From the NCBI GenBank assembly GCA_963823925.1, contig CAWGNI010000002.1:153292-217291 (forward strand): a DNA stretch of 64,000 bases. The letters run 5' to 3'. Under the pieces are notes generated by a model. The model did not search any database and was not told where the DNA came from. It saw only the letters and a program-made list of their open reading frames with translations. Shown one piece after another: positions 21,018 to 37,069 of the stretch; within the stretch, counting starts at the first letter, position 1, and each line of letters begins with the position of its first letter. Source of the DNA: an uncultured Chloroflexia bacterium (GTDB lineage Bacteria > Chloroflexota > Limnocylindria > Limnocylindrales > CSP1-4). Both the position numbers and the translations under genes were made by a program.

Positions 21018-22559
21018 ATGACACAGACGGCAGCACCAGACAGCAGCGATGTGACCAGGCCGGAGACGATCAGGGTGAGCCATTGGATCGACGGACGGGT
21101 CGTCGTCGGGTCCTCTGGGCGGGAGGGCCCGGTGTACGACCCGGCCACCGGTCAGGTGACGCGTCACGTCGACTTCGCGTCCATCGAGGAAGTGGGGACC
21201 GCCGTCGCGGCGGCCAAGGCTGCCTTGCCGGGTTGGCGCTCGACCTCGCTGTCCAAGCGGACCGACATCATGTTCAAGATCAGGAACCTGGTCGAGGCCA
21301 ACCGCAAGGAGATCGCGGCGTTGCTGACGGCCGAGCACGGCAAGGTCCCGTCGGACGCCCTCGGCGAGATCGCCCGCGGGATCGAGAACCTCGAATTCGC
21401 CTGCGGCATCGCCAGCCTGCTCAAGGGCGGCTACTCGGAGCAGGTCTCCGGCGGCGTCGATGTGTACCAGATCCGCCAGCCGCTCGGGGTCGTCGCGGGG
21501 ATCACCCCGTTCAACTTCCCGGCGATGGTCCCGATGTGGATGTTCGCGACCGCGATCGCAGCCGGCAACACGTTCATCCTCAAGCCGTCCGAGAAGGACC
21601 CATCCGCGTCCAACTTCCTGGCCGAGCTGCTGGCCGAGGCCGGCGTCCCGGACGGGGTCTTCAACGTCGTCCACGGCGACAAGGTGGCGGTCGATGCCAT
21701 CCTCGCCCATCCGGACGTCGCCGCGGTCTCGTTCGTCGGTTCCACGCCGATCGCCCGATACATCTACGAGACCGGCACGAAGGCTGGCAAACGCGTCCAG
21801 GCGCTCGGTGGGGCCAAGAACCACATGATCGTCCTGCCCGACGCCGACATCGAGATGGCCGCGGATGCGGCGGTCTCGGCCGGATACGGCTCGGCCGGCG
21901 AGCGTTGCATGGCGATCGCCACGATCGTCGCGGTCGGTGCCGTGGCGGACCCACTCGTCGAGGCGATCAAGCTCCGCCTGCCCAGGGTCAACGTCGGACC
22001 GGGCACGGATCCCAAGGCCGAGATGGGCCCGCTGGTCACTCGCCAGCATCGGGACAAGGTCGCCTCGTACCTCGACAGCGGCCCGGCCCAGGGCGCAACG
22101 GTCGTCGCCGATGGGCGCGAGCATCCGCTCTACGGCAGCTCCGACGGGTTCTTCCTGGGCGTTTCGCTCATCGATCACGTCACGCCGGCGATGGACGCCT
22201 ATCGCGACGAGATCTTCGGTCCGGTCCTGACGGTCATGCGGGTCGACACCTACGACGAGGCGGTCAAGCTCATCAACGATAACCCGTACGGCAACGGCAC
22301 GGCGATCTTCACCCGCGACGGCGGAGCCGCGCGTCAGTTCCAGTTCGACGTGAACGCCGGGATGGTCGGGATCAACGTGCCGATCCCGGTGCCCGTCTCC
22401 TACTACAGCTTCGGTGGCTGGAAGAGCTCGCTCTTCGGCGACCTGCACATGTACGGCCCGGAGGGTGTCCAGTTCTACACCCGGGCCAAGATCGTGACGG
22501 CTCGCTGGCCGGACCCGGGCACGAGCAAGGTCGACCTCGGCTTTCCCCGGACCCGCTAG
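21018..22559 (+). CDS. mmsA: methylmalonate-semialdehyde / malonate-semialdehyde dehydrogenase (CoA-acylating)
   Basis: Aldehyde dehydrogenase superfamily with MmsA-type features and a catalytic Cys region (GERCMA). The ORF is intact. The larger antisense ORF over it is a GC shadow. Confidence 0.9.
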   Translation: MTQTAAPDSSDVTRPETIRVSHWIDGRVVVGSSGREGPVYDPATGQVTRHVDFASIEEVGTAVAAAKAALPGWRSTSLSKRTDIMFKIRNLVEANRKEIAALLTAEHGKVPSDALGEIARGIENLEFACGIASLLKGGYSEQVSGGVDVYQIRQPLGVVAGITPFNFPAMVPMWMFATAIAAGNTFILKPSEKDPSASNFLAELLAEAGVPDGVFNVVHGDKVAVDAILAHPDVAAVSFVGSTPIARYIYETGTKAGKRVQALGGAKNHMIVLPDADIEMAADAAVSAGYGSAGERCMAIATIVAVGAVADPLVEAIKLRLPRVNVGPGTDPKAEMGPLVTRQHRDKVASYLDSGPAQGATVVADGREHPLYGSSDGFFLGVSLIDHVTPAMDAYRDEIFGPVLTVMRVDTYDEAVKLINDNPYGNGTAIFTRDGGAARQFQFDVNAGMVGINVPIPVPVSYYSFGGWKSSLFGDLHMYGPEGVQFYTRAKIVTARWPDPGTSKVDLGFPRTR

Positions 22560-22565
22560 GGGCCA

Positions 22566-23480
22566 TCACACCGGGCGGCTGCGTCGTCTCGAGAGCGCGG
22601 CGATGTCGGCCGGACCGGTCCCGCAGCAGCCGCCCAGCCAGGTCGTGCCGATCCGGCCAAACCGACCGCATCGGGGTCGAATGCCCGCCGGCGTCGGCGA
22701 CCCATTGCCGTTCCGTCGCGTCCCAGCGATCCCCTCCGTTCGGGTAAGCGATGAGGGGTGCGTCACTCACGGCCCTCGCCTCGGGCGCTTGCCAGCAGGT
22801 CCGGCAGATAGCGTGGCGCCGTGCAATTGACGCCGATCGCGAGGACCGTGGGTGCGTCCCCGAACGCGACGGCATCCTCGATCGGCTCCCCGGCGGCCGT
22901 CGTCTCGCCATCGCGGCATGCGTAGCTCAGCCAACCGCGGGCACCGAGCTCGCCCAGCAACGCGACGACGACATCCGCCTCGCGGATCGTCGGGATCGTC
23001 TCGACCGCAAGCAAGTCGGCCCCGGCTTCGAGCAGCACCTCCAGCCGGGGCCGGTGAAAGGCCGCGAACCCGGCCCTCGTCAGATGGTAGTCACCGCGGT
23101 ATTCGGATCCGTTGGCGAGCATCGCCCCGTACGGACCGACCGAGCCGGCCACCAGCAAGGGTCGATCGTCGCCCGTCTCCGCCCGATACCGGTCGCGCGC
23201 CCGCTGCGCGAGTACGACGCTCGATCGGATGAGGGAGAGCGCCGCGTCGCGCTCGAACCCGGCCCCGCGAAACCCTCGATCGAGGCCTGATAGCTAGCCG
23301 TCGTCGCGACCTGGGCTCCGGCCCGGAAATAGGCCAGGTGGACGTCCTCGATCGCATCCGGATCCGTCTGGAGCAGGCGGGCCGACCAAAGGTGGTCCGA
23401 CAGATCGTGGCCGCGAGCCATCAACTCCGTCGCCAGCCCACCGTCGAGGACGGCGACGTCGTCCGGGACCGGGCCAGCTC
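22566..23480 (-). pseudogene. mmuM: homocysteine S-methyltransferase (MmuM/BHMT family) disrupted by at least 3 frameshifts
   Basis: The homology runs across three reading frames. The N-terminal part ([17 protein letters not shown]...ASIEGF) is in one frame. The middle ([10 protein letters not shown]...GVNCTAPRY) is in a second. The C-terminal parts (PLIAYPNGGDRWDA and TTWLGGCCGTGPADIAAL) are in two further frame segments. No start codon is evident either. Confidence 0.7.
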
Positions 23481-23492
23481 GGCGAGTCCACC

Positions 23493-24890
23493 TCAGTGCG
23501 TTCGGACGTAGTCTGCCGCGGATCGCTTGATGAATCGGCCGTGGCCTCGGCGGCCCGTGAACTCCCCATCGCGGACGATGACCGAGCCGCGCGACAGGAC
23601 GATATCGCTCCCGCCCTGGACGGAGCGCCCTTCGTAGCACGAATAGTCGACGGCCATGTGGTGAGTCGCTGCCGAGATCGTATGTCGCCGGTCGGGGTCG
23701 TAGATGACGATATCGGCATCGGAGCCGACCGCGATGGCACCCTTCTTCGGGTACATCCCGAACAGCTTGGCCGGCGCCGTCGCGATGATCTCCACCCACC
23801 GCTCCCGGGTGATCCGGCCACCGACGACGCCGCCGTCGTGGAGCAGATCCAGCCGGTCCTCGACGCCAGGCAGGCCGTTCGGGACCTTGCGGAAGTCATC
23901 GCGGCCGAGGTCCTTCTGGCCGTGGAAGTCGAACGGACAGTGGTCCGTGGCCACCAGCTGGAGGTCGTCCCTGACCAGACCCGTCCAGAGCTCCTCCCAG
24001 TGATCCTTCGTGCGGAGGGGAGGGGAGCACACGAACTTGGCGCCCTCGAACCCGTGGCCCAGGTCGTCGAGCGACAGGAACAGGTACTGCGGGCAGGTCT
24101 CGGCGAACACGTCCGACCCCCGATCGCGGGCATCCCGCACGACGTCGAGCGCCTCCCGGGCGGACAGGTGGACGAAGTAGACGGGCGCTCCGGCCGCCTC
24201 CGCCAGGCGGATGACCCGGTTCGTCGCCTCGCCCTCGAAGACGGGCATCCGGGCCAGCCCGTGACCGATCGGGTCGGTCGTGCCGGCCGCCACGGTCTGC
24301 TCGGCCACGACGTCGATGGCCATCCCGTTCTCCGCGTGCATCATGATCAGTCCGCCATTCGCGGCCGTCTGCTGCAGCGCCCGGAAGATCGCCCCATCGT
24401 CGCTGTAGAAGACGCCCGGGTAGGCGGTGAACAGCTTGAAGTCCGGCACCCCCTCGGCCACCAGCCCGTCCATCTCGGCCAGCGTGTCGTCATTGACGTC
24501 GCTCATGATCATGTGGAAGCCGTAGTCGGTCACGGCATTGCCCTCGGCCTTGGCGTGCCAGGTGTCGAGACCGTCGCGCAGGGACGCTCCCCGCGACTGG
24601 ACGGCGAAGTCCACGATCGTGGTGGTGCCTCCGAAGGCTGCCGCGCGCGTGCCCGACTCGAAGGTGTCCTTGGCGAACGTCCCGCCGAAGGGCAACTCCA
24701 TGTGGGTGTGGACGTCGATCCCGCCCGGGATGACGTACTTTCCGGTCGCGTCGATCGTCTCGTCGGGCTCGGCACCCGATGCGAGGAGATCGGTCCCGAT
24801 CCGCGCGATCGTCTCGCCATCGATCAGGACGTCGGCGACGGTCGAACCGTCGGCCGTGACGATCGTCCCGCCGGTGATCAGGGTGCGCAT
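23493..24890 (-). CDS. dihydropyrimidinase / D-hydantoinase (cyclic amidohydrolase)
   Basis: 465 aa of the metal-dependent amidohydrolase family with the HxH motif ([13 protein letters not shown]), a carboxylated-Lys region and hydantoinase-family similarity end to end. Confidence 0.85.
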
Positions 24891-24923
24891 CGGTCCCTCC
24901 TCGCCAGGTCGGCCTCTATCAGG

Positions 24924-25166: not shown

Positions 25167-25295
25167 CGCCCACCTCCAGGACGGCCCGGCAGCGACCGCT
25201 GGATCGACGGCGGCTGCGACGGGCGGACGACCATCGTCGCCGATACCGGGTACCGGTCGCCACCCTGACATCCGGCCCATCCGCCCCGACGACGA

Positions 25296-26290
25296 CTAGC
25301 CGCGCAGGCCCGGGATGACGTCCCGCCCGTACGCCTCGAGCTGGGCTTCCTCATCGCCGCTCATGAGATACAGGTTGAACTGGTCGACGCCGGCATCCGC
25401 CAGTTCGTGCAACTTGGCGACGTGCTCGTCGACCGAGCCGAGGATGCAGAACCGGTCCGCGACCTCGTCGCCGACGAAGGCGGCATTGGATGAACCGACC
25501 TCGGCGTGGTGCTCGTAGTCGTAGCCGGACCGATCGGTGACGTATCCGGTCAGGCTGGCCGGGAGCTGCTCGCGCGGGTACTTGTTGACGAGGTCGACGA
25601 CGTGGTTGGAGACGAGCGCCGGGAACCATCGAGTCCGCTCGCGGCCGACGTCGCGCGGTCCGACGTAGGCGGCGGCCGCCGACTGGACCTTGATCGTCGC
25701 CGGGTCCCGACCGGCCGCCGCGGCGGCCTCGCGGACCTGTCCGACGAACCAGCGGATGAGGTCCGGATCCGCGAGCTGGAGGATGATCCCGTCGGCGACC
25801 CGCCCGGCCATCTTGAGGGCCATGGGTCCATAGCCCGCGACCCAGACGGGCAGGGTCCAGTCGCCGGTCCAGGGCAACCGCAATTCGGTCCCCTCGTACT
25901 CGATGTCGCGCCCTTCGACGAGCGCCTTGATGGCGACGATCGCCTCCTCAAGGGTCGCCATCGTCGTCGGTGGCTTGCCGAGCATGCGTCGCGCCGAGTC
26001 GCCGCGACCGATCCCGAGATCCATCCGCCCGTCGGAGATCTCGTTCAGGGTCGCCAGAGTCGAGGCGGTGACCGACGGTTCGCGGGTCGCCGGGTTGGTG
26101 ACGCATGTGCCCAGGCGGAGCCGGGTCGTCGCCTCCGCCATCAGGGTCAGGAGGACGTACGGCTCACGCCAAAGGACGTGGGAGTCGAAGAGCCACGCGT
26201 AGTCGAACCCTGCCGACTTCGGCCTGGCGGGTCAGCGCCAGGGTTCGCTCGATCGAATGCTCAGGCTTGAGGGTGAAACCGAACTGCATG
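25296..26290 (-). CDS. LLM-class (luciferase-like) flavin/F420-dependent oxidoreductase, interrupted by a +1 frameshift near 26213
   Basis: The N-terminus MQFGFTLKPEHSIERTLALTRQAEV lies in one frame (26290..about 26215). The remainder (FDYAWLFDSHVLWREPYVLLTLMAEATT...) lies in the next frame down to 25296. One extra G in gtcgGcagg explains the shift. Confidence 0.7.
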
Positions 26291-26299
26291 ACAACGATC

Positions 26300-27163
26300 C
26301 TACGGGCGGGTCAGATCGGCGTAGGCGTCGGGCCGACGGTCACGGAAGAATTGCCAGGTGTTGCGGACCTCCGCGATCCGGTCCATGTCGAGGTCCCGGA
26401 CGATGAGCTCCTCGTCATGGGCGCTGCCGAGCTCGCCGACGAACTGGCCGCGCGGGTCGACGAAGTAGCTCTGGCCGTAGAAATCGTCGTCGCCGATCTC
26501 GGCCTCGATCCCGACCCGGTTGATCGTGCCGACGTAGTAGCCGTTGGCGATGGCGTGACTGACCTGCTCGATCCGCCACAGGTGCTCGGACAGCCCGCGC
26601 GATGTCGCGCTCGGGATCAGGACGATCTCCGCCCCGTTCAACCCGAGCGCTCGTGCTCCCTCCGGGAAGTGGCGGTCATAGCAGATATAGACGCCGATCT
26701 TGCCGACCGCCGTCTCGAACACGGGATAGCCGAGGTTGCCCGGCCGGAAGTAGAACTTCTCCCAGAACCCCTTGACATGGGGGATGTGGGTCTTCCGGTA
26801 CTTCCCCAGGTACGTTCCGTCCGGATCGATGACCGCCGCGGTGTTGTAGTAGATCCCCGCGGCCTTCTCATCTACCTCGTACATCGGGGCGACGACGACC
26901 ATCCCGGTCTGCTTGGCGAGATCCTGCATCCGCTTCGTCGTCGGGCCGTCCGGGATCAGCTCCGTGTAGCTGTAGTACTGGGCGTCCTGGACCTGGCAGA
27001 AGTACGGCCCGTAGAACAGTTCCTGGAACAGGATGAACTGGGCCCCCTGCTTGGCCGCCTCGTGCGCGTGGGCTTCGTGCTTCTGGATCATCGATTCCTT
27101 GTCGCCGGTCCAGGTGGCCTGGACGAGCGCACCGCGGATCATTCGAGCCATGTCGCGGATCAC
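26300..27163 (-). CDS. carbon-nitrogen hydrolase family enzyme: beta-ureidopropionase / N-carbamoyl-amino-acid amidohydrolase
   Basis: Nitrilase-superfamily fold with a catalytic Cys region (GVYICYDRHFPE) and an E-K-C triad context. It is adjacent to the dihydropyrimidinase gene. Confidence 0.75.
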   Translation of the reverse strand: MIRDMARMIRGALVQATWTGDKESMIQKHEAHAHEAAKQGAQFILFQELFYGPYFCQVQDAQYYSYTELIPDGPTTKRMQDLAKQTGMVVVAPMYEVDEKAAGIYYNTAAVIDPDGTYLGKYRKTHIPHVKGFWEKFYFRPGNLGYPVFETAVGKIGVYICYDRHFPEGARALGLNGAEIVLIPSATSRGLSEHLWRIEQVSHAIANGYYVGTINRVGIEAEIGDDDFYGQSYFVDPRGQFVGELGSAHDEELIVRDLDMDRIAEVRNTWQFFRDRRPDAYADLTRP

Positions 27164-27223
27164 CTCGCTTGGCTGTCGGGTCGGTCCAAGTGGCCTGAGG
27201 GTACACCGCTGCGGGCGGGCGGA

Positions 27224-27613
27224 TCAGTCGGGGATCGCGTCCGGACGGCGGCGGCTGTACCACTCGGTGAACTCGCGGCAGCGGCCGTCCCCGTCGAACC
27301 GGCACACGAAGATATTCGCGAACTCGCGGTCGACCGCCGCTCGATCGTCGGTCAGATACCGGGTCCGGCCGTGGGCGACGCAGGTGTCGCCATCGATCGC
27401 GAGGACCTCGTAGTCGGCCTCCCACGAGCCGGGCGCATCCGGTTCGACCAGCCACGCAGCGACGACCGCGGGCCGACCGACGACCGCTTCGCTGAAGGGG
27501 TCGAACGCGTAGCGGATCTCAGGGCTGAACAGGTCCCCGATGGCGAGCGGGTCGAGCAGTCGCCAGGCATCGACATACCGATCGAGCCAGGACTTGAAGG
27601 CGGCGTGATCCAT
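27224..27613 (-). CDS. NTF2-like / SnoaL-like domain protein (paralog of 50330..50719)
   Basis: 129 aa. WLDRYVDAW...DPLAIGDLFSP...VVGRPAVVAAWL...RFDGDGRCREFTEWY aligns residue by residue with the protein at 50330..50719. Confidence 0.6.
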   Translation of the reverse strand: MDHAAFKSWLDRYVDAWRLLDPLAIGDLFSPEIRYAFDPFSEAVVGRPAVVAAWLVEPDAPGSWEADYEVLAIDGDTCVAHGRTRYLTDDRAAVDREFANIFVCRFDGDGRCREFTEWYSRRRPDAIPD

Positions 27614-27677: not shown

Positions 27678-28334
27678 TCAGCGGGCGAGCTTGGTCGACA
27701 TGCCGGTGTGGAGGAACGCCGTGAACCGAGCGGTCACGGCGAAGACCCGATGGACCCGGACGCCGCGCGTCAGCGTGCTGATCGCCTTGCCCTTGCCGAT
27801 ATAGATGCCGACGTGGGTGCCGCCGCCCCAGATCACCAGGTCACCGATCTTCGGGTGATGCCGGCTGGCCTTGCCGTGCGCCTTGAACCAGTGGTACAGC
27901 GAGCTCGCCGAGCGAAGCCGCGCGGCCCGGATCGCGTGACCGTCGTCTGCCCGCTTGTAGGCGAAGCGGACCAGGCCGGAGCAGTCGAACTTGTTTGGCC
28001 CGTCGGCGCCGTATCGCCACGGATCCCCGATCTTGTTCCGGGCGATCCGGATGATCTGCTGGGCCTCGGTCATCGTCGGCGCCGGGGCGACCGGTGGCGG
28101 GTCGACCGGTGGCGGATCGACCGGTGGCGGATCGACCGGTGGCGGATCGACCGGTGGCGGCACGATCGTCCCGTCGTCGGTCGGGCCGAGGATCGGGTCG
28201 GTTGGGGCGAGGATCGGGTCGGCCGCGACCGGGGTCGAAGCGGCGGCCGGCGCCGAAGCGACCGGGCTCAGGGCGATGGCGAGGGCAAGCGCCGCGGGGA
28301 TCGAGGCGCGAGCGCCCAGACGGATGGTTCGCAA
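27678..28334 (-). CDS. NlpC/P60 family peptidoglycan endopeptidase with signal peptide and (PPVD)n proline-rich repeat
   Basis: NlpC/P60 catalytic Cys (FDCSGLVRFAY) and His (GTHVGIYIG). TTG start with a GAAGGAG RBS. The repeat is PPVDPPPVDPPPVDPPPVDPPPV. Confidence 0.8.
   Translation of the reverse strand: MRTIRLGARASIPAALALAIALSPVASAPAAASTPVAADPILAPTDPILGPTDDGTIVPPPVDPPPVDPPPVDPPPVDPPPVAPAPTMTEAQQIIRIARNKIGDPWRYGADGPNKFDCSGLVRFAYKRADDGHAIRAARLRSASSLYHWFKAHGKASRHHPKIGDLVIWGGGTHVGIYIGKGKAISTLTRGVRVHRVFAVTARFTAFLHTGMSTKLAR
28088..28162. repeat. 15-bp tandem repeat (gtcgaccggtggcgg x5) encoding the PPVD proline-rich repeat inside the NlpC/P60 gene
   Basis: Direct reading: ggtcgaccggtggcg units repeated five times with one substitution (ggg/gga). 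Confidence 0.8.
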
Positions 28335-28614
28335 GTGATGCTCCTTCGTGCACACCGTCGCGTCGTGGCGCGACGGGCAGGACCGCCCGTGGTGGCCGCA
28401 CGGAAAGGACATGGCGAACCGGCAGTGGCCAGGTTCCTGGGAGGAGCCGGCAAACGGTGAGCGATGCCGGCGAGTGGCTCGGAGAGCCGTGCGAACGGGC
28501 GCGTGTTCGTGCTTTCCGGGTTCCCGTGTGATCTGGTGGGTCGATCAGCGTGGCGCAGTCTAGTCGTGTTCCCGAGAACGCGCTGGCGGCGAAGGGAGCG
28601 ACTAGCATCCGCTC

Positions 28615-29571: not shown

Positions 29572-29594
29572 TCGCCCTCTGGTAGCCTGTCGAC

Positions 29595-30029
29595 GTGGGC
29601 CAGATGACCTCCTCCAGGACGGCCACGGCGGGCATCGGGATCCTGGTGGTCGTCGTCGCGACGGCCGTCCGCGCCTTCTTCGCCGTCGTCGGCATGCTGA
29701 TCAGTGCCGGGGTCATGGATGAGAACGGACTTGCGCCCCTCTCCCCGGTCCCGGTCTACCCGTTGGACTCCGCGGCCGGCATCGTCTCGATGCTCCTGCT
29801 GGCCGGGGTCCTGGCGATGAGCCTTGCGAGCATCTGGGGCCTCGTCCGGAGACGATCGTGGGGCTGGACGCTGGCGATCGTGACGTCCGGGCTGATGCTG
29901 ACGTTGAGTCTGGGGTGGTGGGCTGCGGGTGAACCCCACTACCTGTCGATGTTCATCAATTCGGTAGCCGTCTTCTATCTGAATCAGCGGGACCTGCGGG
30001 CCGTGTTCGGGATCGGTCGCGGTGACTGA
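29595..30029 (+). CDS. membrane protein (hypothetical, 4 TM)
   Basis: 144-aa hydrophobic ORF. Its end overlaps the next gene start by 8 nt. Confidence 0.4.
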   Translation: MGQMTSSRTATAGIGILVVVVATAVRAFFAVVGMLISAGVMDENGLAPLSPVPVYPLDSAAGIVSMLLLAGVLAMSLASIWGLVRRRSWGWTLAIVTSGLMLTLSLGWWAAGEPHYLSMFINSVAVFYLNQRDLRAVFGIGRGD

Positions 30030-31845
30030 GGAACGCGACCTCGAACTGCTCCGCCGCCACGAGCCGATCCTGCGGTTCACCCAGGGCGAGTTGTTCTTCC
30101 CGATGGATGCCGAAACGTACGTCGCGAACTGCGACCTCCTCGAGGGGCCTACCCTGCGTGAGGCCAGGGTCGTCCTGCCCTCGGGTCGTCTCGACGTGGA
30201 CAGTCTGGCGGCGACCGCGGCGCCGCCTCCGGGACAGGCTCAATTCCTCCGCTTCGCGCCCAGGCCGATGGGTTCACTCGAACTCGCCCGCTGGCGCAAC
30301 CGGCCCGAACGGCCGCGGTTCTCTGCGCCGGGTCGCCTGGCGCGGGTCGGACTCATCGCGCGCCTCGTGGACGCGGGGCTCGTCATGTCCCTCCTGCTTC
30401 GAGGTCGCGTCCCCGGCGGGACCACGGCCGCCGCGTCGGAACGGTACGAGCGGATCCGCTCCGGTGATCCCCGGGTCGTCTATCACGGTCGGGTCGTGCG
30501 AGAAGGTCGCTGGGTCGTCCTTCACTACATGTTCCTGTATGCGATGAACGACTGGCGGTCCACCTTCGACGGCGCCAACGATCACGAAGCCGATTGGGAG
30601 CAGTGCTTCGTCGTCTGTGAATCGCGGGACGATGGCGAGATCCGACCCGCCTGGTTCTGTGCCGCTGCCCACGACGAGAAGGGAGATGACCTGCGCCGGC
30701 GCTGGGACGACCCGCGCCTGACCCTGGTCGATGGTCACCCGGTCGTCTATCCGGGCGCCGGATCGCACGCCACCTACCTGGAGCAAGGCGAGTACATCAT
30801 GCGCCTGCCCTTCCCGGGTGAGCGAAACCTGCACGGCCCGCTCGACCTGATCCGGCGGATCTGGCGAGATACGCTCGATCAACCCGATCCCGGAGACCTG
30901 GCCATGACCGCCCGGCGAGCCCTGAGCGTCCCGTTCGTGGACTACGCGCGTGGCGACGGCCGGGTCGTCGGGCCCGGCAGCGACGCGCCGTGGACCCCGC
31001 ACCTGATCGGCGACGACGACGGCTGGGTCGACCGGTACACCGGCCTGTGGGGCCTCGATACCGGCGACCGCTTCGCCGGCGAGCGGGCGCCGGCAGGGCC
31101 GAAGTACACGCGGACCGGGAGCGTTCGCCAGTCGTGGCACGACCCGCTCGGATTCTCGGGTCTCGACAAGGTGGCGCCCCCATCCCAGGCCATCCCGGCA
31201 CTGCGTGCGCGGATCGAGGCGCTCGAGGCGACCAGATCGCGTCTGCGCTCCGAAACCGCCGAACTCGAACGGTCGTTGCCCCTCCTCGAGGCGGAGGTGG
31301 CCGCCGTGCGGGCCACGCCTGGCGCAGACACCTATCGGGACGCGCGAGCGACCGAGCTGGCCGATGGCGCCGCTCGACTGGCCGGGTTGCGCGTGGAGAC
31401 CGTTGAAGTCGGCACGGCGGTCACGGCGGCGCAGGCCAGGGTGATCGAGTTGCAGGCTGGTCGCCTCGACGACCCGCGTGCCCATCTCCGCCACGCCGCG
31501 GAACCTGAACCGCCGATCGTGATCCAGCGTCGCGCGCTCGCCGAAACGTGGGCGGCGTTCAGTGTCGGCCTGCTCATCGCCGGCCTCGCGGTCATCGTCT
31601 GGCTGCGGCTGTTGCCGCCCGTCCTGGCCGTGGTCGCCCTGTTCGGGTCGTACCTCGCGATCGAGTCCTTTTTCCGTAGGGACATCCAGATCCTGGTACT
31701 GCGACTGACCCTTGCCCTGGCCTTCGTCAGCGTCGTCATCCTGGTCGTCACCTTCCTGCGCGAGGTCGTGCTTCTCGGGCTGCTCGCCCTCGGCATCCTG
31801 TTGATCCTCGACAATCTCGGCGAACTGCGGCGGCGCCTCAGTTAA
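30022..31845 (+). CDS. hypothetical protein: about 380-aa N-terminal globular domain, coiled-coil segment, C-terminal 3-TM anchor
   Basis: 607-aa ORF with uniform codon usage. The middle region (EALEATRSRLRSETAELERSLPLLEAEVAAV) is coiled-coil-like. The C-terminal hydrophobic helices include (AAFSVGLLIAGLAVIVWL, LLGLLALGILLIL). I recognise no known catalytic motif. Confidence 0.5.
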   Translation: MTEERDLELLRRHEPILRFTQGELFFPMDAETYVANCDLLEGPTLREARVVLPSGRLDVDSLAATAAPPPGQAQFLRFAPRPMGSLELARWRNRPERPRFSAPGRLARVGLIARLVDAGLVMSLLLRGRVPGGTTAAASERYERIRSGDPRVVYHGRVVREGRWVVLHYMFLYAMNDWRSTFDGANDHEADWEQCFVVCESRDDGEIRPAWFCAAAHDEKGDDLRRRWDDPRLTLVDGHPVVYPGAGSHATYLEQGEYIMRLPFPGERNLHGPLDLIRRIWRDTLDQPDPGDLAMTARRALSVPFVDYARGDGRVVGPGSDAPWTPHLIGDDDGWVDRYTGLWGLDTGDRFAGERAPAGPKYTRTGSVRQSWHDPLGFSGLDKVAPPSQAIPALRARIEALEATRSRLRSETAELERSLPLLEAEVAAVRATPGADTYRDARATELADGAARLAGLRVETVEVGTAVTAAQARVIELQAGRLDDPRAHLRHAAEPEPPIVIQRRALAETWAAFSVGLLIAGLAVIVWLRLLPPVLAVVALFGSYLAIESFFRRDIQILVLRLTLALAFVSVVILVVTFLREVVLLGLLALGILLILDNLGELRRRLS

Positions 31846-31933
31846 GTACCTGCTCGTCTGGGCCCACGCTCGTTCGGTCGGCCGGATGTGCTTCAATCCA
31901 ACGACAGCGACATCCGCCCACCCGAGGAGTCCC

Positions 31934-33268
31934 ATGGGCATCACGACGGAAACCGGCGCCATGACCAGCGACGAGATCGTCGCGCTCTCGCGCCAGCACA
32001 CGTTCTTCTCCTGGTCCATCCAGGGCGCCATCGACCCGATCGCGATCGACCATGCCGAAGGCGTCTACCTGTACACCCCGGAGGGTGAACGGATCCTCGA
32101 CTTCAACAGCCAGTTGATGTCGGTCAACATCGGGCACGGCGATCGCCGGGTCATCGACGCGATCGCCGACCAGGCGACCAAGCTCCAATTCGTCCAGCCC
32201 GCCTTCACGACGGAGGTCCGGGCCCGTCTTGGCGCGAAGCTGGCGGAGATCCTGCCCGGCGACATGGACAAGGTCTTCTTCACGCTCGGCGGTGCCGAAG
32301 CGGTCGAGAACGCGATCAAGCTGGCCCGCCACGCGAGTGGTCGACACAAGATCCTTGCTCGATATCGCTCCTATCACGGGGCGACGCTCGGCGCGATGAC
32401 CCTGACCGGCGATCCACGCCGATGGGCGAACGAGCCCGGGATCGTCGGCGTCGTTCGCTATCCCGACACCCATCGTTGGGGCGAAGCCGAGCCCCGGCCG
32501 GTCGCGGAGAGCCTCCAGGGGCTCGAGGACGTCATCCGCTACGAAGGCGCCAAGTCGATCGCGGCCGTCTTCCTCGAGACGATCGTCGGCACCAACGGGA
32601 TCCTGATCCCGCCCGACGGCTATATCGCCGGTGTCCGTGAGATCTGCGACCGCCACGACATCCTGATGGTCGCCGATGAGGTGATGGCCGGGTTCGGCCG
32701 GACCGGGCGCTGGTTCGCCATCGATCACTGGGGCGTCACCCCGGACCTGATGACGATGGCGAAGGGCCTGACCAGTTCGTACCTGCCACTCGGCGCGGTG
32801 GCCATGCGCCACCACATCGCCGAGAAGTTCGAGACCCAGATGTTCTACGGCGGCCTCACCTACAGCAGTCACCCGATCAGCCTGGCCGCCTCCCTCGCGA
32901 CCATCTCGGTCTACGAAGAGGACGGCCTGATCGAGCACGCGGCCCGGCTCGATCCGGTCATGCGCGAACACCACGAGCGCCTTGCGGCCCGGCACCCGAG
33001 CGTCGGCGCGACCCGCAATCTCGGCCTGTTCGGCATCATCGATCTCGTTCGCAGTCGCGACCCGTGGACGCCACTCACACCGTTCAATGGGACGTCGGAC
33101 GAGATGAAGGCGGTCGGCAAGTACCTGCGTGAGCACGGCCTGTACACCTTGCTCCCCAACAACTCGATCCATACGAACCCGCCCCTGTCGATCACCGAGG
33201 AGCAGCTGGCGGAGGGCTTCGAGATCATCGATCGCGCGCTCGAGATCGCCGACCGGGCGATCGCCTGA
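31934..33268 (+). CDS. class III (omega) aminotransferase, beta-alanine/omega-amino acid:pyruvate transaminase-like
   Basis: PLP class III fold with the lysine region (MTMAKGLTSSYLPLGAV). Full length is about 444 aa. Confidence 0.85.
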   Translation: MGITTETGAMTSDEIVALSRQHTFFSWSIQGAIDPIAIDHAEGVYLYTPEGERILDFNSQLMSVNIGHGDRRVIDAIADQATKLQFVQPAFTTEVRARLGAKLAEILPGDMDKVFFTLGGAEAVENAIKLARHASGRHKILARYRSYHGATLGAMTLTGDPRRWANEPGIVGVVRYPDTHRWGEAEPRPVAESLQGLEDVIRYEGAKSIAAVFLETIVGTNGILIPPDGYIAGVREICDRHDILMVADEVMAGFGRTGRWFAIDHWGVTPDLMTMAKGLTSSYLPLGAVAMRHHIAEKFETQMFYGGLTYSSHPISLAASLATISVYEEDGLIEHAARLDPVMREHHERLAARHPSVGATRNLGLFGIIDLVRSRDPWTPLTPFNGTSDEMKAVGKYLREHGLYTLLPNNSIHTNPPLSITEEQLAEGFEIIDRALEIADRAIA

Positions 33269-33299
33269 CCGTGTCCGCGGTCCGCTCGGTGGCAGATCG

Positions 33300-34244
33300 T
33301 TGACAGCCGCCAGCGGTTCCCTCCGCCGGGGCGCCCCGCAGGCGACGGTCGTCGCAGCCGCCGGCCGGACGCGTGCGCGCCGATGGACCGGCATCGCCAT
33401 CGTCCTGATCCTGCTGCTGGTCGCCTGGGAGGTGGCCAAGTGGTTCGGCGGGGACCCGTGGCGCCTGCACGGGACGGTCGCCGGCATCCGGATCGACTAT
33501 GAGCACGTTCCGCCCCTCGACTGGCGGATCGCCAACGACCTGTCGCTGCCGCACGTCTGGGACATCGCCCGGGCGTTCGTCGACCCCGCACAGCGCGGTG
33601 GGGCGCCGCTCGGCGTCGTCCTGACCGGTCAGGCCGTCTTCACCTTCGGCGAGGCGCTTGCGGGGTTCGCGCTCGGGGCGCTGCTCGGTCTGGTGCTGGG
33701 GATCCTGTTCGTCCACTCGCGGCTGGCTGAGCGAGCGTTCGTCCCGTACGTGGTCGCCTCCCAGACGGTGCCGATCCTGGCGATCGCGCCGCTCGTCGTG
33801 GTGGCGCTCAAGGCGGATTGGCTTTCGGTCATGGCGGTGGCGATGTACCTCACGTTCTTCCCGGTCACCATCGCCTCGATGCGCGGGTTGCGGGCGTTCG
33901 ATCCGCGCTCGCTCGAGCTCTTCCGTTCGTATGCGGCCACCCGCCGGCAGATCCTCTGGCAGCTCCGCCTGCCGACGTCGATCCCGTACCTGTTCTCCGG
34001 CTTCCGGATCGCGGCCGCCGCCTCGGTCATCGGGGCCATCATCGGCGAGCAGACGGCCGGTGTCGCGTCCGGGCTCGGGAGCGCGATCATCAACTACAAC
34101 CAGTACTACACCTCCGGGCCTGAGCGGCTCTGGGCGACCGTCGTCATGTGCGCGCTGGTCGGGTTCGCGTTCGTCGGTGCGGTCAACCTCGCCGAGCGGA
34201 TCGTCACCCGTGGCCGCTATCGATCCGTAGGGGACCTGGTATGA
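33300..34244 (+). CDS. ABC transporter permease (NitT/TauT family)
   Basis: Multi-TM protein with an EAA-like loop (RQILWQLRLPTSIPYLFSGFRIAAAASVIGAIIGE). The start is uncertain, with a TTG at 33300. Confidence 0.65.
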   Translation: MTAASGSLRRGAPQATVVAAAGRTRARRWTGIAIVLILLLVAWEVAKWFGGDPWRLHGTVAGIRIDYEHVPPLDWRIANDLSLPHVWDIARAFVDPAQRGGAPLGVVLTGQAVFTFGEALAGFALGALLGLVLGILFVHSRLAERAFVPYVVASQTVPILAIAPLVVVALKADWLSVMAVAMYLTFFPVTIASMRGLRAFDPRSLELFRSYAATRRQILWQLRLPTSIPYLFSGFRIAAAASVIGAIIGEQTAGVASGLGSAIINYNQYYTSGPERLWATVVMCALVGFAFVGAVNLAERIVTRGRYRSVGDLV

Positions 34245-35098
34245 CGGCGGAGCGGCCATCGGGGGAGGCGACACCGATCGTGGTCGAGGCGGTGGGCGTC
34301 GGGAAGGTGTTCGGCGCCGGAGCAGGGTCGGTGACGGCGGTCGATGGGGTTGACCTGGCGATCCGCGAGGGCGAATTCGTCTCGCTCATCGGCCCGTCCG
34401 GGTGCGGCAAGTCCACGCTCCTTCGCCTCATCGCGGACCTGACCCACCCGACCAGCGGGACCCTGGCCATCAACGGCAAGCCGGCGGCTCGGGCGAGGTC
34501 CGATCGCGATTACGGGATGGTGTTCCAGGCTCCGATCCTGATGGACTGGCGGACCGTCGCGAAGAACATCGAGCTGCCGCTCGAGATCATGGGGTATCCG
34601 ACCGACGAACGACATCGGCGGGCGCTCGACCTGCTGAAGCTGGTCGAGCTCGAGGCCTTCGCCGACCGATACCCGTGGCAGCTGTCCGGCGGGATGCAGC
34701 AGCGCGTCGCGATCGCACGGGCGCTGTCCTTCGATCCGAAGCTGCTGCTGATGGACGAGCCCTTCGGAGCGCTCGACGAGATGACCCGTGAGCGCATGAA
34801 CGCGGAACTGATGCGGATCTGGCGACGGACCGGGACGACGATCGTGTTCGTCACGCACAGCATCCCGGAGGCGGTCTTCCTGTCTTCCCGGGTCGTCGTG
34901 ATGTCGGCACGACCGGGGCGGGTCTCGCAGGTGATCGACATCGACCTCCCCGTCGAACGTGGGGTCGAGACTCGCGAATCCGAACCCTATTTCCGGCTCG
35001 TCACGCGAGTCCGCGAGGCGCTTCGGCAGGACGAGTCGTCCGATCCCGGGCCGGACGACACCACGGCCCGGCGCGTCCGCGCCGAGGGGCTGTCGTGA
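34241..35098 (+). CDS. ABC transporter ATP-binding protein (NitT/TauT family)
   Basis: Walker A (GPSGCGKST), signature (LSGGMQQR) and Walker B (LLLMDEPFGALD). ATGA overlap with the upstream permease. Confidence 0.85.
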   Translation: MTAERPSGEATPIVVEAVGVGKVFGAGAGSVTAVDGVDLAIREGEFVSLIGPSGCGKSTLLRLIADLTHPTSGTLAINGKPAARARSDRDYGMVFQAPILMDWRTVAKNIELPLEIMGYPTDERHRRALDLLKLVELEAFADRYPWQLSGGMQQRVAIARALSFDPKLLLMDEPFGALDEMTRERMNAELMRIWRRTGTTIVFVTHSIPEAVFLSSRVVVMSARPGRVSQVIDIDLPVERGVETRESEPYFRLVTRVREALRQDESSDPGPDDTTARRVRAEGLS

Positions 35099-35871
35099 TG
35101 GTGTCGACCGCGCGCGAGTGGCTGCCCGCCGTCGCGGTGTTCGTCATCGTCCTGGTCGCCTGGGAGGTCGGCTTCCTCGTCCTTGGCGTCCAGTCGTTCC
35201 TGATCCCACGTCCGAGCGTGATCAGTGAACAGCTCGTCGCCGACTGGGGGACGCTCGCACGAGGCCTGGCGTTCACCGGGACCGAGGCCGTTGCCGGATT
35301 GATCGTCGGGGTCGCGCTGGGCACGGGCGCCGGTCTGGCGACGTCACGCTGGGCGAGTGCGCGCGAGGTCCTGCTTCCGGTGGCGATCGGGGCGAGCACG
35401 ATCCCGATCATCGCCTTCGCGCCGATCACCTTGAACTGGTTCGGTCCGGAAAGCCTCCTCCCGCGGATCACGATCGTCGCGGTGATGGTCTTCTTCCCGG
35501 TCATGGTCAACACGATCCGAGGACTCACGAACGTCGATCCGGGCGGGCTCGAACTGCTCGCGTCGTACGCCGCAAACGACCGCCAGACACTGACCAAGCT
35601 GCGCGCGCCGAACGCGCTCCCGTACTGGTTCACGGCGCTGAAGATCGCCACGACCCTGAGCGTCATCGGCGCCGTCGTCGGGGAGTTCTTCGGCGGGCCG
35701 CTCTACGCCCTCGGGATCTACATCACGCTCCAGACCGGAGCCAGCAAGTATCCGGCTGCGTGGGCAGCCATCGTCCTCGCGTGTGTCCTGGGGATCGTCC
35801 TGTACCTCGCCGCCGTGGTGCTCGAGCGCGTCACGATCCCCTGGTACACGGCTCGCGAAACGGCCCGATGA
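35095..35871 (+). CDS. ABC transporter permease (second, NitT/TauT family)
   Basis: 258-aa multi-TM protein with an EAA-like loop. Its start overlaps the ATPase stop. Confidence 0.75.
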   Translation: MMVSTAREWLPAVAVFVIVLVAWEVGFLVLGVQSFLIPRPSVISEQLVADWGTLARGLAFTGTEAVAGLIVGVALGTGAGLATSRWASAREVLLPVAIGASTIPIIAFAPITLNWFGPESLLPRITIVAVMVFFPVMVNTIRGLTNVDPGGLELLASYAANDRQTLTKLRAPNALPYWFTALKIATTLSVIGAVVGEFFGGPLYALGIYITLQTGASKYPAAWAAIVLACVLGIVLYLAAVVLERVTIPWYTARETAR

Positions 35872-35968
35872 CGGTCGCCCCGGTGGCCTACCATCCGTCG
35901 TCAGGGTGTCGGCGGGGTCGGCTTCGGGTGGCGAGCCGCCGACGAGCGAGTGAGGAGGAGCGATCGAC

Positions 35969-37069
35969 ATGAAACTGTCTCGCAAGCTGGTCGGCCTGTC
36001 GGCCGCGGCCGTGCTGGTACTCGCGGCGTGCTCGAGCAGCGGGTCGTCCGCCGCCGCGCTGACGCCGCTCAAGTTCCAGCTCCAGTGGGTCGCCCAGTCC
36101 CAGTTCGCCGGCTACTACGCGGCGGTCGACCAGGGCTATTACAAGGACGCCGGCCTCGACGTCACGCTGCTGCTGGGTGGACCGAACATCAACAACGTCC
36201 AGGTCGTGGCGACCGGTGGGGCGGACATCGGGACGGCGTGGCTTCCGAACATGCTCCAGTCGCGCGAGGGCGGGACGGATCTCGTCTCGATCGCCCAGAT
36301 CTTCCAGCGCTCGGGCACGCGGATGGTGTCGTTCACGGGCGCGAACATCACGACCCCTGCCAGCATGGATGGCAAGAAGATCGGCAGCTGGCTGGGCGGC
36401 AATGAGCCCGAACTGTTCGCCGCATTGACCAAGGCCGGGCTCGATCCGACCACGCAGAACATCATCAAGCAGAACTTCGACATGTCCGGCCTCCTCAACG
36501 GCGACCTCGATGTCGCCCAGGCGATGATCTACAACGAGTACGCCCAGGTCCTCGAGGCGAAGGACCCGGCCACCGGGGAGCTGTACAAGCCGAGCGACCT
36601 CAACCTGGTCGACTTCAACGACCCATCGGTCGGGACGGCGATGCTCCAGGACCAGATCTTCGCCACCGATGCGTGGCTCAAGACCGGCAATAATGCCGAT
36701 GTCGCGGAGAAGTTCCTGGAGGCGACCTTCAAGGGTTGGATCTACTGCCGTGACAACGCCCAGAAGTGCGTCGACATCGTGCTCGCCAAGGGGTCGCAGC
36801 TCGGGGCCAGCCATCAGGCCTGGCAGATGAACGAGATCAACGGGCTCATCTGGCCGTCACCGAACGGGATCGGCCTGCTGGACCAGACGCTCTACGACCA
36901 GACGGTTTCGATCGCCACCACCTACGGCGTCCTCCAGGCCGCGCCCGCCGATGGGGCGACCCGGACGGACCTCGCCCAGAAGGCCCTCGACGCGCTCGGC
37001 AGCTCGGTCGACACGAAGGGGATGGGCTTCACGAAGGCGACGGTCACGCTGACCGAGGGCGGCAACTAG
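35969..37069 (+). CDS. ABC transporter substrate-binding lipoprotein (NMT1/THI5-like, NitT/TauT family)
   Basis: Lipobox (LAAC|SSS) and GAGGAGG RBS. About 330-aa periplasmic binding fold of the NMT1/THI5 type, which is often pyrimidine or HMP related. Confidence 0.8.
   Translation: MKLSRKLVGLSAAAVLVLAACSSSGSSAAALTPLKFQLQWVAQSQFAGYYAAVDQGYYKDAGLDVTLLLGGPNINNVQVVATGGADIGTAWLPNMLQSREGGTDLVSIAQIFQRSGTRMVSFTGANITTPASMDGKKIGSWLGGNEPELFAALTKAGLDPTTQNIIKQNFDMSGLLNGDLDVAQAMIYNEYAQVLEAKDPATGELYKPSDLNLVDFNDPSVGTAMLQDQIFATDAWLKTGNNADVAEKFLEATFKGWIYCRDNAQKCVDIVLAKGSQLGASHQAWQMNEINGLIWPSPNGIGLLDQTLYDQTVSIATTYGVLQAAPADGATRTDLAQKALDALGSSVDTKGMGFTKATVTLTEGGN

Follow-up and report, generated by a model that had tools for sequence, protein, structure and literature searches.

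The locus raises the question of whether a class III aminotransferase, a semialdehyde dehydrogenase and an ABC importer of the NitT/TauT type belong, together with a dihydropyrimidinase and a carbon-nitrogen (CN) hydrolase encoded between them, to one system for the use of pyrimidines. A sequence-only reading of the window, by which we mean the whole 64,000-nucleotide stretch of DNA analyzed, had proposed that they do. We compared the genes with the coordinates of that reading by third-position GC (GC3) analysis and family scans, and every gene it had named was confirmed by GC3 and by strong family matches. The open reading frames of the cluster are long, with GC3 values of 0.83 to 0.93 and family E values of 1e-37 to 1e-217, figures that exclude chance. 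The genes are as follows.

21018..22559, plus strand: CoA-acylating malonate/methylmalonate-semialdehyde dehydrogenase (MMSDH, mmsA/MSDH type); TIGR01722, 723 bits (cut-off 448.5), full profile; PF00171, 457 bits
22600..23470, minus strand: homocysteine S-methyltransferase pseudogene, outside the system
23493..24890, minus strand: dihydropyrimidinase/D-hydantoinase (PydB type); TIGR02033, 586 bits (cut-off 393), profile positions 2-454 of 454
25296..26287, minus strand: luciferase-like (LLM) oxidoreductase of the F420 class; TIGR03842, 379 bits (cut-off 295) for a 281-aa fragment
26300..27151, minus strand: CN hydrolase of the nitrilase superfamily, probable beta-ureidopropionase (PydC type); PF00795, 221 bits
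27224..27613, minus strand: small SnoaL_2/NTF2-like protein; PF12680, 36 bits
27678-28412, minus strand: NlpC/P60 protein, from the family scan; not conserved with the system
28615-29571, plus strand: DAGK-type lipid kinase, from the family scan; not conserved with the system
29595-30029, plus strand: 144-aa open reading frame without a family match; not conserved with the system
30022-31845, plus strand: 607-aa open reading frame without a family match; not conserved with the system
31934..33268, plus strand: class III (omega) aminotransferase, probable beta-alanine/beta-aminoisobutyrate type (PydD-like role); PF00202, 297 bits
33300..34244, plus strand: ABC permease 1 (NitT/TauT type); PF00528, 79 bits
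34241..35098, plus strand: ABC ATPase; PF00005, 117 bits
35095..35871, plus strand: ABC permease 2; PF00528, 72 bits
35969..37069, plus strand: NMT1/THI5-like substrate-binding lipoprotein (SBP), the specificity component of the importer; PF09084, 130 bits
37147-38157, minus strand: DHOD-like protein, following the PFOR gene; NF005741, 410 bits
38154-41804, minus strand: PFOR; TIGR02176, 1716 bits

The genes are identified at the family level and their clustering is conserved, and the region is probably a form, conserved in Chloroflexota and Actinomycetota, of the reductive (Pyd) system of pyrimidine catabolism, with its genes in three transcription units. The CN hydrolase, LLM and dihydropyrimidinase genes would form a minus-strand unit, the aminotransferase, permease, ATPase, permease and SBP genes a plus-strand operon, and the MMSDH gene, convergent with the dihydropyrimidinase unit, a third. 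The aminotransferase gene is separated from that of permease 1 by 31 nt, and the next two junctions, between permease 1 and the ATPase and between the ATPase and permease 2, are 4-nt overlaps, spacing that fits a single operon. We infer all substrate specificities in the following scheme, as well as the ligand of the transporter and the reductase role and F420 dependence of the LLM protein. The SBP-dependent importer would bring in a pyrimidine, most likely uracil or thymine and possibly the dihydro forms. The LLM protein would reduce the C5=C6 bond in place of the canonical dihydropyrimidine dehydrogenase, and dihydropyrimidinase would then open the ring. The CN hydrolase would release beta-alanine or beta-aminoisobutyrate with NH3 and CO2, from which the aminotransferase would form malonate or methylmalonate semialdehyde, to be converted by MMSDH to acetyl- or propionyl-CoA.

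The clustering was assessed in 80 species-level genome loci anchored on the SBP (one genome per species; SBP identity, 49 to 78%), with counts based on the 54 that span 12 kb or more. Of these, 48 had one or more of the genes for dihydropyrimidinase, CN hydrolase, LLM, class III aminotransferase and MMSDH; a CN hydrolase, dihydropyrimidinase or LLM gene occurred in 40, a class III aminotransferase in 33, and an MMSDH homolog adjoined the cluster in 16. The four-gene ABC system at 33300-37069 was confirmed, its permease-ATPase-permease-SBP order being kept in almost all of these loci (51 to 52 of 54). Because gene order and flanking genes vary among lineages, inherited synteny alone does not account for the clustering. 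The ABC, CN hydrolase, dihydropyrimidinase and LLM genes are co-oriented on one strand in ten loci, and four actinobacterial loci (L059, L060, L075, and L077, all Actinomycetota) have the full set of nine genes on one strand. One of these, L077, is from the cultured Mycetocola miduiensis, and a divergent regulator with a GntR/aminotransferase fusion lies upstream of its operon. The window's order of dihydropyrimidinase, MMSDH, Lgt and MDH genes recurs in L098 and L105. The pathway genes in 48 loci and the nine-gene actinobacterial loci support the earlier claim of pathway completion, that is, of a functional tie between the dihydropyrimidinase and CN hydrolase and the other three components, the aminotransferase, MMSDH and the importer, in a clustering that recurs across Chloroflexota and Actinomycetota. 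The sequence-only reading is thus partly supported: this tie, the ThiY/THI5 affinity of the SBP and an interrupting segment stand, and the inclusion of the PFOR/DHOD-like pair does not.

The LLM protein, which that reading had overlooked, is the oxidoreductase conserved in the cluster. It is a putative F420H2-dependent uracil/thymine reductase and likely the first enzyme. Its closest solved relative is the F420-dependent Mer; use of F420 is suggested by the family name and remains putative, and no F420 biosynthesis gene was found among the annotated parts of the window (about 9.8 to 50.3 kb). In the window, the LLM gene has a +1 frameshift near position 26216, the first approximately 25 codons lying in one frame and the remainder in another, and comparison with four relatives shows one extra base. 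The gene is intact (329 to 330 aa) in L002 and in L001, a 90%-identical relative. Either the first step has been lost in this genome or the broken frame is an assembly error. In metagenome loci anchored on LLM, the gene adjoined that of dihydropyrimidinase in 29 of the 30 that were 10 kb or longer, and 24 of these 30 had a CN hydrolase. An NCS1 nucleobase-type permease (PF02133, 414 bits) was present in 17 of 35 LLM-anchored loci, where the ABC system is missing. Recurrent neighbors were inosine-uridine nucleoside hydrolase, pyrimidine nucleoside phosphorylase, DeoC and NupC.

The aminotransferase, which scores 531 bits against NF004718 (cut-off 472) and whose 444-aa start matches the gene call in L001, could instead form with the ABC genes a self-contained module for uptake and transamination of an omega-amino acid. 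The importer would then supply the aminotransferase's own substrate (beta-alanine, beta-aminoisobutyrate, taurine/hypotaurine or GABA) rather than a pyrimidine, and closeness to the Pyd genes would reflect shared downstream metabolism only. We consider this unlikely. The 31-nt gap on the same strand agrees with it. In Limnocylindria-type loci, aminotransferase orthologs (58 to 90% identity) lie directly upstream of permease 1; in other lineages, that place is taken by a different class III aminotransferase (27 to 34% identity). Seven Limnocylindria-type loci (L003, L018, L019, L028, L041, L054, and L056; at least 12 kb) have the aminotransferase-ABC operon but lack a ring-opening enzyme within 10 kb, dihydropyrimidinase, CN hydrolase and LLM all being missing, so the importer could serve the aminotransferase directly. 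The closest solved relative of the aminotransferase is taurine:2-oxoglutarate aminotransferase (6JIX, 328 bits, residues 10 to 441), a similarity that would speak against the beta-alanine-type assignment. The permease and ATPase most resemble sulfonate, taurine and nitrate systems; the best NCBIfam matches were SaoP, SsuC, NtrB and TauC for permease 1 and TauB-type, SaoA and NtrCD models for the ATPase, all below cut-offs. However, in fifteen loci the ABC genes accompany dihydropyrimidinase, CN hydrolase or LLM without an aminotransferase or MMSDH, and in LLM-anchored clusters it is the nucleobase-type permease that substitutes for the ABC transporter. The SBP had no match among TauA and SsuA models and structures, no sulfoacetaldehyde-processing gene recurred among the neighbors, and MMSDH, which lies within the one-strand operon in the four actinobacterial loci, fits the product of beta-alanine and not that of taurine.

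A pathway starting at dihydropyrimidines or hydantoins is doubtful to a greater degree. Dihydropyrimidinase would then be the first enzyme, the LLM protein would have another role, and the cargo would be dihydrouracil, dihydrothymine or 5-substituted hydantoins. TIGR02033 spans D-hydantoinases and dihydropyrimidinases, and HyuA, one of its members, has hydantoins as substrates (PMC12507026). Dihydropyrimidinase and CN hydrolase occur without LLM in several SBP loci (L017, L020, L022, L053, and L063), and in the window LLM is the broken gene among intact ones. Against this stand the near-constant adjacency of LLM to dihydropyrimidinase and the nucleoside-processing and NupC neighbors, which deliver uracil or thymine and not the dihydro forms. 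The CN hydrolase also scores much higher with beta-ureidopropionase/N-carbamoylputrescine amidase structures (169 to 205 bits) than with D-carbamoylases (about 100 bits). Its closest structures are N-carbamoylputrescine amidase (205 bits), Drosophila beta-alanine synthase (177 bits) and human beta-ureidopropionase (169 bits), and it reaches 267 bits with the aguB model, below the cut-off of 410. It is as near to the amidase as to beta-ureidopropionase, which would argue against the preferred pathway. Relatives of the CN hydrolase at 54 to 90% identity occur in 33 of the 54 loci anchored on the SBP and in 24 of the 30 anchored on LLM.

In the preferred pyrimidine pathway, the ABC system is a putative pyrimidine importer. 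The SBP has the lipobox LAAC, with Cys21 invariant in 20 relatives, and no match to NCBIfam models. Its only relatives among solved structures are 4NMY (72 bits), ThiY (3IX1, 48 bits) and THI5 (32 bits), and ThiY/THI5 is the closest branch, consistent with the earlier call of a THI5-like protein; the family-level argument that NMT1 proteins bind pyrimidines would be a weak one. The AlphaFold model is poor (pLDDT 47). Relatives at 74 to 98% identity are abundant in metagenomes, the few with a source name being Chloroflexota or Limnocylindrales metagenome-assembled genomes. Some SBP loci have a Mo-hydroxylase/amidase/AllG set in place of LLM, so the ligand may differ by lineage.

Other genes accompany the system less widely. 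The SnoaL_2/NTF2-like protein adjoins the CN hydrolase in close relatives only (L001, L002, L019, and L068; 75 to 93% identity). The homocysteine S-methyltransferase pseudogene has at least three reading-frame switches over about 900 nt, its longest fragment covering only positions 109 to 236 of the 306-position NF007020 profile, and the gene is missing between dihydropyrimidinase and MMSDH in L098. The interruption of the island by an unrelated segment (27678-31845) proved real in family scans, which found NlpC/P60, the DAGK-type kinase and two open reading frames without a family match. The DAGK gene and the 144-aa and 607-aa frames occur in L001 only, besides a DAGK gene in L019, and were not found in the relatives L002, L004 and L005.

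The PFOR/DHOD-like pair had been counted into an island of roughly 21 kb as its pyrimidine reductase; ferredoxin reduced by PFOR would drive a PydAc-like, DHOD-type uracil reductase. Both in the window and in L001, the pair is the immediate neighbor of the SBP gene, the alternative reductase LLM is frameshifted in the window, and a ferredoxin-dependent dihydropyrimidine dehydrogenase of the DHOD fold is known (PMC7332683). We nevertheless regard this role as very improbable. Even at E < 1e-3, only one of 160 loci anchored on the SBP or on LLM, namely L001, had the pair, and the LLM-anchored loci had no DHOD/PreA-like gene at that threshold. The ferredoxin domains of PydAc carry [4Fe-4S] clusters (PMC7332683); the DHOD-like protein of the window, in contrast, contains not one cysteine and so has neither Fe-S clusters nor a cysteine acid. 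In L163 and L164 the same pair has unrelated surroundings, with PHA-synthesis genes beside it in the latter, and in another relative, GCA_936414885.1, about 230 kb of the same contig separates it from the Pyd cluster. The two genes form a self-contained unit outside the pyrimidine system.

A ThiXYZ-type importer for salvage of the thiamin pyrimidine (HMP/FAMP), unrelated to the adjacent catabolic genes, is the least credible reading, for although ThiY (E = 9e-12) and THI5 belong to the few SBP relatives detectable in solved structures, ThiY scores only 48 bits, the annotated parts of the window showed no thiamin gene, an Rfam search of the window gave no TPP riboswitch or other match, also when the threshold near the operon was relaxed to E <= 1, the clustering with Pyd enzymes is repeated and strong, and NMT1/THI5 annotations have been similarly misleading in Proteobacteria, where genes so annotated belong to nucleobase and not thiamin metabolism (PMC7373994).

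Bacterial Pyd clusters have already been described as including a PydD-type aminotransferase and a malonic semialdehyde dehydrogenase (PMC7332683, Fig. 1C legend). Reduction of a uracil moiety at C5-C6 genetically requires a putative F420/FMN oxidoreductase (PMC10714638), and in uric acid clusters of Chloroflexota a putative F420 reductase of the luciferase family has been proposed instead of PydA-like reductases (PMC12507026).

Coding frames were chosen by third-position GC, because the window has a G+C content of approximately 69%, and were then scanned with the Pfam and NCBIfam profiles. By these measures, every gene in the pyrimidine utilization island of roughly 21 kb proposed by the sequence-only reading was real and lay where that reading had put it.

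Genes of the cluster and its flanks in the window, with profile matches
21018-22559, plus strand: CoA-acylating malonate/methylmalonate-semialdehyde dehydrogenase, MMSDH (TIGR01722, 723 bits, cut-off 448.5)
22600-23470, minus strand: homocysteine S-methyltransferase gene, between MMSDH and dihydropyrimidinase, with at least three frame changes
23493-24890, minus strand: dihydropyrimidinase (TIGR02033, 586 bits, cut-off 393, full length)
25296-26287, minus strand: luciferase-like oxidoreductase of the F420 class, LLM (TIGR03842, 379 bits, cut-off 295)
26300-27151, minus strand: beta-ureidopropionase-like CN-hydrolase (CN_hydrolase, 221 bits)
27224-27613, minus strand: SnoaL_2/NTF2-like gene
27678-31845: block earlier regarded as unrelated, with NlpC/P60, a DAGK-type kinase, and two ORFs without a family match
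31934-33268, plus strand: class III aminotransferase (PF00202, 297 bits; NF004718, 531 bits)
33300-34244, plus strand: permease 1 (PF00528), 4-nt overlap with the ATPase
34241-35098, plus strand: ABC ATPase (PF00005), 4-nt overlap with both permeases
35095-35871, plus strand: permease 2 (PF00528)
35969-37069, plus strand: NMT1/THI5-like binding lipoprotein, SBP (PF09084, 130 bits)
37147-38157, minus strand: DHOD-like gene (NF005741, 410 bits)
38154-41804, minus strand: PFOR

The dihydropyrimidinase, LLM, CN-hydrolase, and SnoaL-like genes occupy the minus strand between the MMSDH and the aminotransferase. In the Limnocylindria-type relatives L001, L002, L019, and L068, the SnoaL_2/NTF2-like gene always adjoins the CN-hydrolase (75 to 93% identity). 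The frame changes of the methyltransferase gene, together with its absence at that position in metagenome locus L098, indicate a pseudogene that is probably decaying; generic assembly noise was rejected as the cause, since the profile matches of almost all other genes run full length. The two ORFs without a Pfam or NCBIfam match overlap one another (29595-31845, plus strand; 144 and 607 amino acids), show 64% and 85% identity in L001, a relative with 90% DNA identity to the window and shared gene order, and are absent from the comparison loci L002, L004, and L005. Judging from this distribution, these ORFs and the DAGK-type kinase gene are a lineage-specific insertion inside the cluster. The lipobox cysteine of the SBP, Cys21, is invariant in relatives. 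Two paralogues of the prolipoprotein diacylglyceryl transferase Lgt lie 7 kb apart (11741-12712 and 19810-20946, both on the plus strand), the second extended by a long stretch at the N terminus and matching less strongly (63 versus 206 bits). A promoter and terminator scan gave nothing exceeding shuffled expectation, and no regulator adjoining the cluster was visible in the window.

To place the importer in its wider context, relatives of the SBP were aligned, one genome per species was scanned, and the window proteins were mapped by tblastn to 80 SBP-anchored loci, over which SBP identity was 49 to 78%; all counts rest on the 54 loci of at least 12 kb. The loci came from Limnocylindria, Dormibacterota-labelled MAGs, Caldilineaceae, Phototrophicaceae, Anaerolineae, Ardenticatenaceae, Acidimicrobiia, Microthrix, Gaiellales, Thermoleophilia, and the cultured Mycetocola miduiensis. 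Metagenomes were rich in SBP relatives (74 to 98% identity), and the few with a named source were MAGs of Chloroflexota or Candidatus Limnocylindrales. The permease-ATPase-permease-SBP order was retained nearly everywhere. At least one of five catabolic genes was present in 48 of the 54 loci: a CN-hydrolase, dihydropyrimidinase, or LLM in 40, a class III aminotransferase in 33, and an MMSDH in 16. The ABC genes shared a strand with all three of CN-hydrolase, dihydropyrimidinase, and LLM in 10 loci, and all nine genes lay on the same strand in four (L059, L060, L075, and L077, the last from M. miduiensis, where the order is CN-hydrolase-dihydropyrimidinase-LLM-permease-ATPase-permease-SBP-aminotransferase-MMSDH). 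Since gene orders and flanking genes vary by lineage, the clustering has been kept through many rearrangements. The aminotransferase occurred in two forms at the same position, either as an orthologue of the window type (58 to 90% identity) or as a different class III enzyme (27 to 34%) that looks like a functional replacement. The dihydropyrimidinase/MMSDH/Lgt/MDH/PEPCK order of the window was found again in metagenome loci L098 and L105.

Two other arrangements were seen among these loci. Upstream of the nine-gene operon of M. miduiensis, and divergent from it, is a MocR-type regulator with a GntR-HTH/aminotransferase fold (L077, 2595-3929, minus strand), beyond which lie genes of the enoyl-CoA hydratase family. 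In place of the LLM, several loci of Anaerolineales and Acidimicrobiia (L027, L030, L039, L046, and L063; for example, L030 7043-20854 and L063 7119-21000) have a three-subunit Mo-hydroxylase, an amidase, an FdrA-like protein of CoA-ligase fold, and AllG (of the oxamate carbamoyltransferase subunit family) on the same strand as the CN-hydrolase and the ABC genes. Here, the same type of transporter could be supplying a nucleobase route of oxidative or hybrid character.

The recurrent clustering, along with the match to published Pyd clusters of reductive pyrimidine degradation (PMC7332683), bears out the earlier proposal of pathway completion by the aminotransferase and MMSDH, and the frequency of ring-opening enzymes beside the ABC genes supports the view that the importer belongs with the catabolic genes. 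The PFOR and DHOD-like pair, also assigned to the island, has to be removed from it. Across 160 SBP- or LLM-anchored loci, the pair was absent from all except L001, even at E<1e-3. In GCA_936414885.1, it lies at ~21 to 38 kb and the Pyd cluster at 263 to 279 kb of the same contig, and in another relative it lies beside PHA-synthesis genes, so that the two-gene unit recurs in differing genomic contexts. PFOR is always followed by the NF005741 "DHOD-like" protein, with overlapping stop and start codons (window 37147-41804, minus strand; L163 4354-9056; L164 5247-9056). The ferredoxin-dependent dihydropyrimidine dehydrogenase PydAc, found in Pyd clusters, has [4Fe-4S] ferredoxin domains fused to an FMN domain (PMC7332683); the DHOD-like protein contains zero cysteines and cannot carry these defining domains. 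An identity as PydAc was rejected on that ground and on the constant pairing with PFOR, also away from Pyd genes.

Three kilobases beyond PFOR is a uracil phosphoribosyltransferase gene (44857-45699, minus strand; PF14681, 254 bits), which is also found near the SBP cluster in the Limnocylindria-type loci L001, L003, L004, L018, L019, and L054; the gene may have a housekeeping role or may form a branch that salvages the same base. Next to it is a segment of ~1.8 kb without a counterpart in L001 (43086-44857), containing a 385-amino-acid ORF (43656-44813) whose sole match, to the T6SS Tli3 immunity domain, is subthreshold at 26 bits.

While the aminotransferase, MMSDH, and importer assignments stood and the pair did not, the sequence-only reading had overlooked the LLM, which is the sole redox enzyme travelling with the cluster. 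Sixteen LLMs were aligned, and the alignment was used to scan metagenome contigs. Dihydropyrimidinase adjoined the LLM in 29 of the 30 LLM-anchored loci of at least 10 kb, and a CN-hydrolase was present in 24 of the 30. Most LLM-anchored loci were without the ABC system, and in 17 of 35 an NCS1 permease (PF02133, 414 bits) lay between the enzymes. Other recurrent neighbors were inosine-uridine nucleoside hydrolase, pyrimidine nucleoside phosphorylase, DeoC, and NupC, which supply free uracil or thymine. Since a route from these bases needs a reductase and the canonical one is absent, we infer that the TIGR03842 LLM would act as an F420H2-dependent uracil/thymine reductase. Two partial precedents touch on such chemistry: in Chloroflexota uric-acid clusters, a putative F420 reductase of the luciferase family has been proposed to stand in for PydA-like reductases (PMC12507026), and a putative F420/FMN oxidoreductase is genetically required for reduction of the uracil ring at C5-C6 in mureidomycins (PMC10714638). 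The literature searched, of partial coverage so that novelty is not proven, contained no characterization of TIGR03842 or of an F420-dependent dihydropyrimidine dehydrogenase.

The LLM of the window scores above the TIGR03842 cut-off, yet its frame is broken. Compared with four relatives, it has one extra base near 26216, which leaves the first ~25 codons in another frame than the rest; in the 16-LLM alignment, this +1 insertion severs about 50 N-terminal residues, some of them invariant in relatives. L001 and L002 carry intact copies, and the frameshift could be a recent inactivation, making a pseudogene, or an assembly error.

The importer belongs by its domains to the NitT/TauT family (TC 3.A.1.17), with PF09084, two PF00528, and PF00005 proteins in one operon. 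The best NCBIfam matches of its permeases and ATPase were SsuC, TauC, NtrB, SaoP, and a TauB-type ATPase, all under the equivalog cut-offs. In LLM-dihydropyrimidinase-CN-hydrolase clusters without the ABC system, NCS1 permeases hold the same place, which implies an equivalent uptake role, and the predicted ligand is a pyrimidine-base-like substrate. The only solved relatives of the SBP by sequence were 4NMY, ThiY (3IX1), and THI5; NCBIfam gave it no model match, and TauA and SsuA structures were not among its hits. AlphaFold modelling with 20 close homologues gave a poor model (pLDDT 47). In Proteobacteria, genes annotated as NMT1/THI5 have been linked to nucleobase catabolism and not to thiamin (PMC7373994). 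No characterized NMT1-type uracil transporter was found in the literature searched, whose coverage was partial and leaves novelty unproven.

The main rival to a pyrimidine-base ligand is direct feeding of the aminotransferase, with beta-alanine, beta-aminoisobutyrate, or taurine as the imported compound. The tight junction between the aminotransferase and permease 1 fits this, as do seven loci that carry only aminotransferase and ABC genes, and the best solved match of the aminotransferase is the taurine:2-oxoglutarate aminotransferase Toa (6JIX, 328 bits, class III fold, nearly full length), with the beta-alanine-pyruvate transaminase 4B98 also matching at 188 bits. However, ring-opening enzymes accompany the ABC genes in 40 of 54 loci, 15 of which have no aminotransferase or MMSDH, a more frequent link than that with the aminotransferase. 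The window enzyme lies among genes of pyrimidine catabolism that include MMSDH, unlike the sulfoacetaldehyde metabolism of Toa, and no sulfoacetaldehyde-processing enzymes were among the recurrent neighbors. Enzymes of the taurine:2-oxoglutarate aminotransferase class (EC 2.6.1.55) are also reported to act on beta-alanine and 3-aminoisobutyrate, so the resemblance to Toa is compatible with a PydD-like role. Salvage of the thiamin pyrimidine by a ThiXYZ-type system is the weakest alternative: Rfam gave no match, hence no TPP riboswitch, at the gathering threshold over the 64 kb and nothing relevant at E<=1 in 20.5 to 38.5 kb, and the part of the window that was annotated showed no thiamin genes.

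The most far-reaching reading of these gene neighborhoods, held tentatively and at slightly short of an even chance, is that TIGR03842 is a third, non-homologous dihydropyrimidine dehydrogenase, an F420H2-dependent uracil/thymine reductase replacing the FMN/Fe-S PydA in Chloroflexota, Actinomycetota, and other soil bacteria, and that the adjacent NMT1/THI5-like SBP system is the first ABC importer dedicated to free pyrimidine bases. If so, a widespread reductive pathway would have an unrecognized first enzyme, of different fold and cofactor (F420), and an unrecognized high-affinity ABC uptake system, both of which genome-based predictors seeking PydA/PreAT now miss. For Limnocylindria, Acidimicrobiia, Caldilineaceae, and other abundant uncultured lineages of soil and fresh water, it would change what is predicted about the recycling of pyrimidines for nitrogen and carbon, and F420 would gain a physiological role in aerobic bacteria. 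Since M. miduiensis CGMCC 1.11101 is in culture and has the whole nine-gene operon, the idea is open to direct testing.

Among known systems, the closest are the bacterial Pyd clusters, which combine PydA, PydB, and PydC with the aminotransferase PydD and either the reductase PydE or a malonic semialdehyde dehydrogenase, MSDH (PMC7332683). The overall chemistry is expected to be the same. Both share a TIGR02033 dihydropyrimidinase, here full length and above the cut-off as for PydB, a carbamoyl-beta-amino-acid amidohydrolase step that is putative here, and a clustered class III aminotransferase and malonate/methylmalonate semialdehyde dehydrogenase; the last two agree with the PydD and MSDH types at the family level, recur with the cluster in other phyla, and are the ordinary part of the system. 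In the dihydropyrimidine dehydrogenase PydA, FMN (DHOD-fold) and ferredoxin domains occur together, and an FAD/NAD(P)H part may also be present (PMC7332683), whereas the conserved cluster has no canonical PydA, with or without a Pyr_redox_2 partner, in or near it: the sole DHOD-fold gene (37147-38157) is the cysteine-free one, which is not conserved with the cluster, and the cluster showed no Pyr_redox_2 gene, leaving the LLM as the only conserved oxidoreductase. A further difference is the putative PydC, which is of the nitrilase superfamily, about equally close to N-carbamoylputrescine amidase and animal beta-ureidopropionases and under the aguB cut-off. A Chloroflexota variant of the reductive uric-acid pathway (PMC12507026) was rejected, as the window is without SsnA, XdhD, and YgeW/Y/X-type genes and its amidohydrolase is of the TIGR02033 family. 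The putative reductase of that pathway and the F420-dependent methylene-H4MPT reductase Mer, the nearest solved relative of the LLM (133 bits), share with it the TIM barrel of F420-class luciferase-like proteins, and the reductive dearomatization of a uracil-type ring proposed here parallels the chemistry suggested for "yanthine" (PMC12507026); the LLM, however, has as its neighbors the TIGR02033 dihydropyrimidinase and the beta-ureidopropionase-like hydrolase instead of SsnA/XdhD. As for transport, the NCS1 nucleobase/hydantoin permeases are secondary carriers of unrelated fold, whereas the window encodes a dedicated, primary, SBP-dependent ABC system. ThiXYZ and THI5 share with it the PF09084 NMT1/THI5-like domain, and its permeases and ATPase are likewise of the NitT/TauT type, but its SBP is similar to ThiY, the FAMP/HMP-binding protein of PDB 3IX1, at only 48 bits, it has two different permease genes, and it clusters consistently with catabolic, not thiamin, genes. 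An NMT1-type importer and an F420-class LLM would thus set this Pyd system apart from the known kind.
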